Assembly (NCBI GenBank): GCA_026338065.1
Contig: JAPKXI010000028.1
Span: 1-47,543, forward strand
Length of the DNA stretch: 47,543 nt
From: Lachnospiraceae bacterium
Lineage (GTDB): Bacteria > Bacillota > Clostridia > Lachnospirales > Lachnospiraceae
Direction of reading: 5' to 3'
Shown: positions 1 through 43 of the stretch, one piece after another
Layout: each line of letters starts with the position of its first letter
Numbering within the stretch: position 1 is the first letter of the stretch
The notes under the pieces: generated by a model
What the model saw: the letters and a program-made list of their open reading frames with translations, nothing else
Databases searched by the model: none
Told to the model about the DNA's origin: nothing
Position numbers and translations under genes: made by a program

Positions 1-43
1 GAGAGCGGAACGTCAGCAAGAAATTGCTTCTTTGTTCTAGCGT
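1..43 (+). repeat. Family A structured repeat, partial copy (3' end only, cut by the window edge)
   Basis: gagagcggaac...ttctagcgtcc followed by a C-rich tail matches the 3' module (TTCGGAGAGCGGAAC-stem-ACTCTAGCGTCC-polyC) of the full copies at 4431, 14575 and 28253. Confidence 0.6.

Follow-up and report, generated by a model that had tools for sequence, protein, structure and literature searches.

A high-copy family of TwoAYGGAY-like hairpin repeats in a mouse-gut Lachnospiraceae species

Repeats and genes of the window

The first 43 positions of the window, by which we mean the whole 47,543-nucleotide stretch of Lachnospiraceae DNA that was analyzed, hold the end of a truncated copy of a hairpin repeat of about 260 bases, here called a family-A rod. 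The window holds five full family-A copies (A1 to A5) and this truncated one, together with rods of a second family (B) and a structured repeat (C). Nearly all genes lie on the minus strand, and the plus strand has a very strong GC skew throughout the window, with values of about -0.3 to -0.4. The features are as follows.

1-45, plus strand: truncated family-A copy, of which the window edge leaves the final 45 nt of the 3' arm; TTCTAGCGTCC at its end (35-45) has one mismatch
46-76, plus strand: C-rich tail of the truncated copy (CCACCCCCCATCC...), extending to the stop codon of the NAPRTase gene
77-1570, minus strand: NAPRTase gene (open reading frame), adjoining the tail of the truncated copy
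1636-1786, 25267-25360, 31511-31635 and 36163-36276, with a fragment near 10640-10690: family C, a structured repeat (...GGAAGTCCCCC...GGGGGACTTCCTTGATGAGGTTAAA)
4422-4679, plus strand: A1, long-type rod, antisense to the flanking genes
4680-4737, plus strand: C-rich tail of A1, reaching the stop codon of a PilM-like gene
10335-10583, minus strand: A2, short-type rod, co-directional with the neighboring genes
10897-10980, minus strand: tRNA-Leu(CAA)
14569-14827, plus strand: A3, long-type rod, antisense context
14828-14970, plus strand: tail of A3, with a 34-nt C-rich unit in 3.3 repeats (14831-14943)
24613-24769, 25380-25530, 35789-35935 and 36343-36489: family-B rods of about 150 nt, core TGCTGGGGCCGTTTGCACTAAGG...
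28244-28504, plus strand: A4, long-type rod, antisense context
28505-28552, plus strand: tail of A4, with a 19-nt unit in 2.3 repeats (28510-28552), reaching into the end of a histidine-kinase gene
32580-32654, minus strand: tRNA-Pro(CGG)
32678-33043, minus strand: tmRNA, tag ANEDYAFAA
43822-44076, minus strand: A5, short-type rod (full copy at about 43835-44076), sense context, without a C-rich tail

Open reading frames called at 32165-32659 overlap the tRNA-Pro gene and are probably spurious.

A full-length orthologue of the truncated copy lies at positions 4490-4765 of locus L049, which belongs to the same species and is 99.1% identical to window positions 1-4548. When a core pattern derived from the window copies was used to scan public genomes, at least 120 loci were found, nearly all of those listed coming from one mouse-gut Lachnospiraceae metagenome-assembled genome (MAG), MGBC128194. 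Where this genome overlaps the window, the two are 99.1-99.25% identical, and they therefore represent the same species. An nhmmer profile search of the window and the loci (about 0.8 Mb) gave at least 189 non-overlapping matches, at least 111 of them full length, and 109 copies were aligned. Most of the matches that are not full length are cut by contig or locus ends, and many family-A copies are located at contig ends. Family-A copies are intergenic, and this species carries more than 100 of them (at least 109 full-length copies recovered).

Family-B rods have a core unrelated to that of family A and the same termini, ACAGC...GCGTCC followed by a pyrimidine run (a C-run or CCGG). Both family-B pairs in the window are arranged head-to-head. 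The copy at 25380-25530 has its core in inverse orientation to the termini, an arrangement found in 1 of 13 family-B copies and in no family-A copy. Rfam has no family for these rods and returned only spurious matches to miRNA models, which long hairpins in general attract with scores of 20-34 bits. Neither did family C give a significant Rfam match, the weak ones being to ohsC (28 bits) and Clostridiales-1 (18 bits); this repeat is often found just 5' of family-A heads or in the spacers of rod pairs. Tandem repeats accompany family B as well: a 52-nt unit is present 3.3 times between two rods (35940-36112), and a 35-nt unit ending in CAGCGTCC is present 2.2 times at the tail of rod B4 (36455-36532), a rod-end duplication as in family-A tails.

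Fold, orientation and strand of the family-A rod

The family-A rod is an imperfect palindrome of about 260 nt with about 76-93 base pairs. The RNAalifold consensus of 109 copies contains 76 pairs, 93.6% of which are Watson-Crick, and it shows, as does the model of the five window copies, two adjacent hairpins closed by a long stem that is supported by covariation. The core is 95-100% conserved among the 109 copies (e.g., GTGTTTAGCC, GGCGAATTGC and TCCGTCCGGTTGGAT). In the outer stem most positions display three to four types of Watson-Crick pair, and the outer arms are distinct in 107 of 109 copies with pairing kept. The five window copies by themselves already have double compensatory changes at 26 of 93 predicted pairs. 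Compensatory changes so far beyond chance indicate that the fold is real, either in RNA or in single-stranded DNA. Both strands fold very stably; for A1, the RNA of the gene-sense strand reaches -154 kcal/mol (z = -10.5).

The tip of the rod consists of two small hairpins and the conserved junction strands UAGGAU (alignment columns 88-93) and UUGGAU (columns 172-177), to which the GGAU motifs are confined. A larger variant of about 340 nt, with hairpin 1 extended and some 90 extra nucleotides in hairpin 2, occurs both in MGBC128194 and in another Lachnospiraceae species (CBFFYP01) (L039 1962-2303; L075 1032-1372; L023; L073 4438-5252). A role of the outer stem as a guide was rejected, since its arms gave only chance-like matches of about 13 nt elsewhere and no extended targets.

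The 109 copies fall into two stem subtypes. Long-type copies (n = 70) carry the leader ...ATCTAYCGGCAGGAAAAGACAGCC, and 45 of them face a convergent gene end, at a median distance of 51 nt, vs 23 that do not. Short-type copies (n = 39) have the leader ...ACGTAGATTGTGGGACAATACAGCC, which resembles an extended -10 element, and often the tail GCGTCCTCTTTGGGAnTTTTT; 29 of them vs 7 precede a co-directional gene by about 140 nt. Copy A5 illustrates the short type: TGTGAGACAAT is its extended -10-like leader, and a small terminator-like hairpin followed by a T-run (43841-43822) forms its 3' end.

To assign gene context, we used GC skew in the 1.5 kb to either side of a copy, which gave 62 antisense and 39 sense copies. 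The proposal in the initial annotation that family-A elements occupy 3'-UTR positions agrees with this wider set: in the window the GCGTCC ends lie 31-143 nt from minus-strand stop codons (58 nt for the frame at 4738, 143 nt at 14971, 35 nt at 28540 and 31 nt at 77), and the long type as a class sits just past convergent gene ends. A2 and A5 are indeed inverted relative to the other copies, and the short C-rich tandem units that had been noticed are those listed above for the tails of A3 and A4. C-rich runs were likewise found 3' of A1, A3, A4 and the partial copy, and also at A2, far above the background, which for qualifying intergenic 12-mers is 4% on the antisense strand and 0.5% on the sense strand. 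A start sequence said to be common to these copies is shared by A1 and A4 (GGAAAAAACAGCCAGAG) and differs in A3 (GAAAGAACCAGCTGGAG); the start of the partial copy falls outside the window.

The tail cannot be called fixed, as had been suggested. A5 has none, the tail sequence differs from copy to copy, and the number of repeats and the length of the G-run vary among strains; at A4, the five strains compared have one or two 19-nt units and G-runs of unequal length. Across the family its presence depends on orientation, with a C-rich tail in 54 of 62 antisense-context copies vs 6 of 39 sense-context copies (Fisher p = 3e-13). Orientation and position relative to genes are thus not random. In several loci the terminal 15-25 nt of the rod recur within the tail units. 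Pairing between leader and tail was considered and discarded, because A.C pairings were equally frequent at registers -1, 0 and +1, indicating composition rather than register-specific pairing.

Read in the gene-sense direction, antisense copies present a G-run (9 G in 16 nt), the rod with the foot UGUUUUUU, and then UGUUUUUUCC. At least five U in 8 nt occur within a few nucleotides of the rod foot in 88-91% of antisense-context copies vs 25-57% of sense-context copies. The sequence thereby contains what defines a rho-independent terminator, a stable hairpin and an immediate U-tract on the transcribed strand, although a hairpin of 250 nt is atypical of terminators, and that the U-tract follows so large a structure counts against reading it as an intrinsic terminator. 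Both the 3'-UTR placement and the poly-G in the transcript, as first proposed for the window copies, are supported for the antisense-context class in general.

The strand of the structure is a different matter. It had been assigned to the minus strand from what was described as a single non-Watson-Crick pair in the outer helix of A1 and A4, C.A on the plus strand. A1 does have one such pair (C.A), whereas A4 has two (C.A and G.A), and the pair concerned, 13-255, is a recurrent polymorphism (17 A.C, 11 G.U and 80 Watson-Crick among 109 copies), which does not support the assignment. We counted G.U vs A.C over all pairs, setting aside two invariant tandem wobbles. On the strand matched by the Rfam model discussed below, which for both matching copies (A1 and A2) is opposite to the strand initially chosen, the ratio is 171:60 overall. 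Divided by flank GC skew, it is 60:6 where the Rfam strand is gene-sense and 43:34 where it is antisense. Unlike what pure strand-mutation bias would produce, these ratios are not mirror images, leaving a net preference of about threefold for the Rfam strand. The rod alone is more stable on that strand in 95 of 105 copies, and in 53 of 62 antisense-context copies. The flanks (leader and tail) add about -11 kcal/mol on the gene-sense strand of antisense copies only, which makes both strands equally stable. An invariant tandem U.G/G.U in hairpin 2, moreover, would read C.A/A.C if the structure formed on the gene-sense (minus) strand. For the rod itself, G.U counts and folding energies thus favor the other strand or are neutral, and the initial strand call is not supported.

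These data bear on the reading closest to the initial annotation, in which family A is a cis-acting 3'-UTR RNA whose structure is selected on the gene-sense (minus) strand, the poly-G leader and rod stabilizing or terminating the upstream mRNA. The orientation dependence of the tail, the short distance to convergent gene ends, the U-tract directly after the rod, the contribution of the flanks and the fold of the A1 transcript all agree with it. On the other hand, about 39 of 101 copies are in the other orientation, upstream of genes; the G.U excess does not move to the gene-sense strand even in antisense copies, the rod alone is more stable on the opposite strand, hairpin 2 loses its invariant wobbles, and a terminator hairpin needs no conserved core. 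We consider this explanation unlikely.

Relation to the TwoAYGGAY RNA motif

Searched alone against Rfam RF01731 (TwoAYGGAY), A1 scored 63.7 bits on the plus strand and A2 68.2 bits, with a gathering threshold of 43. Under the same conditions A4 and the larger variant of L039 gave no match at E ≤ 1, and a default Rfam search of the whole window missed every family-A copy. The AYGGAY sequence is absent from the terminal loops of both hairpins, which are AUUCUCGAAU-like and GCUGCAC-like. Family A and TwoAYGGAY have in common the gut Clostridiales/Lachnospiraceae habitat and taxon, a long stem closing two adjacent hairpins, and junction and stem nucleotides (CAU...UG, an AAG linker, GCC...GGC and CG.U.CGUC). 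Family A differs by having an additional outer stem of about 32 bp, a pyrimidine tail, defined termini and a copy number above 100 in a single genome. Because of the missed default search, the unmatched copies and the lack of AYGGAY loops, we call family A TwoAYGGAY-like rather than a member of TwoAYGGAY.

The function of the TwoAYGGAY RNA motif is not known (Weinberg et al., 2010, PMC2864571), and a CsrA-sponge hypothesis has been published for it (PMC4333381). Family A might be a set of trans-acting small RNAs of this type, independently transcribed from the Rfam strand and acting, for example, by CsrA titration through UAGGAU/UUGGAU or by pairing of the CCUCC tail with Shine-Dalgarno sequences. 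The above-threshold scores of A1 and A2, the G.U excess and the lower folding energy all point to that strand, and the short type has suitable ends: the leader TGTGnGACAAT, extended -10-like, about 7 nt before the rod, and a U-rich or terminator-like 3' end. However, the long-type copies (70 of 109) have neither a -10-like leader nor a terminator on the Rfam strand, the GGA motifs lie outside the hairpin loops, and more than 100 copies lacking conservation at orthologous sites and paired strictly head-to-head (see below) fit a repeat better. A small RNA family of this kind therefore appears quite improbable. A T-box or riboswitch leader, as could be imagined for a structure of about 260 nt upstream of a gene, was dismissed as it found no support in Rfam.

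Spread of the repeat and comparison with known mobile elements

Relatives with conserved synteny provide empty sites for several window copies. In two relatives whose M32 peptidases are 86% and 75% identical to that in the window, the spacer between the M32 and QueH genes measures 131 nt, compared with 548 nt in the window, and is without A3 and its tail. A2 is absent from the tRNA-Leu to zf-HC2 spacer of synteny-conserved relatives (sister species), and a relative with 77% AddB identity lacks A5 as well as the family-B block of about 750 nt downstream of addA. Exact insertion boundaries cannot be defined, since the empty-site spacers align poorly. In a relative with 89% AddB identity, a reversed family-A rod with a G-run takes the place of the window's family-B rod immediately behind the addA stop codon. 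The contig of this relative ends within that rod (L131 17077-17205, TAG GGGGG...GGACGC...), which demonstrates turnover between rod families at one site as well as assembly breakage at rods. Within the species no presence/absence difference was found, A4 being present in 5 of 5 strains examined.

No target-site duplication was apparent: the longest repeat shared by the flanks averages 6.5 nt vs 6.2 nt in shuffled pairings. Copies less than 1.5 kb apart were head-to-head in 20 of 20 pairs (p about 1e-12), and in 14 of the 20 a long copy was paired with a short one. A conserved linker recurs in many of these pairs, and tandem repeats or a third repeat family were also found in the spacers. Some head-to-head spacers contain 4-6 tandem copies of a 27-62-nt unit (L003 6664-7144; L061 3442-3682; L022 2492-2766; L108 1997-2293), which in L003, L022 and L108 includes the short-type leader (GTAGATTGTGGAATAAT, -10-like or iteron-like).

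The REP, BIME and REPIN elements of enterobacteria and Pseudomonas are intergenic palindromes present in hundreds of copies, often at gene 3' ends. REPs are about 35-40 nt long with a GTAG head, act as 3' hairpins or attenuators, and leave no target-site duplication; in BIMEs, the PU types Y and Z pair only in inverted orientation, with specific linkers. Family A resembles them in being intergenic and high-copy, in its two subtypes that pair inverted, in a hairpin shape held across copies, in placement at gene 3' ends and in the absence of target-site duplication. It differs in length (about 260 nt), in having the termini ACAGC...GCGTCC without a GTAG head, in its structured conserved core and in its Firmicute host, and a crude HUH+Y motif scan of 0.88 Mb of DNA revealed no HUH/Y1 transposase (RAYT) gene. 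We found no recurrent protein beside family-A copies.

Other interspersed repeats offer partial parallels. ERIC/IRU and Correia (NEMIS) elements are imperfect palindromes of 100-160 bp that occur in either orientation in transcribed intergenic regions, where they affect mRNA processing, stability and termination depending on orientation, some with promoter-like ends. Family A is also an imperfect palindrome with promoter-like ends in some copies. Correia elements, however, have TA target duplications and conserved terminal inverted repeats, whereas family A shows no duplication and its stem differs in sequence from copy to copy yet remains paired. The bcr1-type repeats of the Bacillus cereus group are, like family A, Firmicute interspersed repeats, with a predicted RNA fold that is reportedly kept by compensatory changes; they are shorter, have no sequence relationship to family A, and target duplication has been reported for them. 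A classical MITE dependent on a DDE transposase was rejected because there is no target-site duplication and the stem is distinct in 107 of 109 copies, without conserved terminal inverted repeats. Likewise rejected were a phage origin, as the core pattern had 0 matches in viral contigs, and an encoded peptide, as open reading frames overlap the element in only about 10 copies each.

Family A thus combines traits of known kinds, and TwoAYGGAY-like plus REP/BIME-like is the best fit. The reading that we prefer, and to which we give an even chance, is that of a fold-dependent, non-autonomous REP/BIME-like mobile repeat that is co-transcribed and forms a putative terminator-like 3' hairpin. The conserved core would be the recognition module of the mobile repeat. 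Copies would reach new intergenic positions without duplication of the target site, and what the mechanism reads is probably the folded single strand, whether DNA or RNA. A near-invariant core next to an outer stem that drifts only by compensatory changes would thereby be explained. A single machinery may recognize both families A and B, as suggested by their common termini 5'-ACAGC...GCGTCC-3' and pyrimidine run around unrelated cores. The near-invariant core in more than 100 copies could equally reflect host-level selection on each copy, as for a small RNA or a protein-binding site.

After insertion, orientation would determine the effect on the host. In the antisense context (A1, A3, A4 and the 1-43 fragment), transcription of the upstream gene is predicted to continue into the copy, so that the mRNA carries G-run, rod and U-tract at its 3' end; this arrangement would most likely terminate transcription or protect the 3' end. 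Sense-context copies would bring a promoter-like leader and a U-rich tail to positions upstream of genes.

A more far-reaching form of mobility is a previously undescribed, fold-dependent mobilization system of Lachnospiraceae without target duplication, in which rods of families A, B and possibly C share the termini 5'-ACAGC...GCGTCC-3', insert at gene ends in a fixed orientation and are moved in trans by a putative HUH-type or reverse-transcriptase enzyme. We regard this system as doubtful. If it exists, it would be a Firmicute counterpart of REPIN/RAYT or a bacterial SINE, with the TwoAYGGAY RNA as recognition module rather than a conventional small RNA.

Very unlikely is a retro-mobile, SINE-like element. 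In that model a reverse transcriptase gene at another place in the genome would provide the enzyme that copies the rod RNA, the product would be integrated, and the tail repeats would represent stutter during priming at the RNA 3' end. It is true that the final 15-25 nt of the rod recur, together with tail sequence, as tandem and partly degenerate repeats in the tails, and the missing target-site duplication and the strand bias of the fold agree with such a process. The term counts of a September 2026 bioRxiv preprint, "Minerva" (10.64898/2026.09.22.753630), list TwoAYGGAY 52 times next to "reverse transcriptase" (14) and "cDNA" (24), counts from which the conclusions of that preprint cannot be inferred. 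Against copying from RNA, a crude motif scan of about 0.8 Mb revealed no reverse-transcriptase reading frame, tandem repeats also occur at the short-type 5' leader, suggesting that the foot of a large palindrome is prone to slippage, and strain variation in tail repeat number is typical of slippage.

TwoAYGGAY has been an orphan RNA motif of gut bacteria since 2010, and a close, lineage-specific relative that exceeds 100 copies and is structured by orientation shifts the view of it from a single small RNA gene to a repeat or mobile element. The paralogues, with their compensatory changes, form a natural data set for structure solving. For annotation, it is relevant that family-A rods break MAG assemblies and are missed by default Rfam filters. 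If antisense copies do terminate or stabilize mRNAs, operon boundaries would be shaped by them genome-wide, and the termini common to two unrelated rod families point to an unknown mobilization machinery in an abundant gut clade.

Two further observations concern the genes of the window. Comparison of window positions 27057-27319 with loci L126-L129 (3724-6700) revealed a strain polymorphism: an N6/N4 DNA methyltransferase gene and a 293-aa gene, located between a 240-aa gene and gerA, are present in 4 of 6 strains and missing in the window and in L125. Between the family-C copy at 1636-1786 and A1, the minus strand at 1902-4340 encodes an 812-aa protein that matches the shoulder and repeat domains of Major Vault Protein and SPFH/Band 7, domains whose combination is unusual for a Firmicute.
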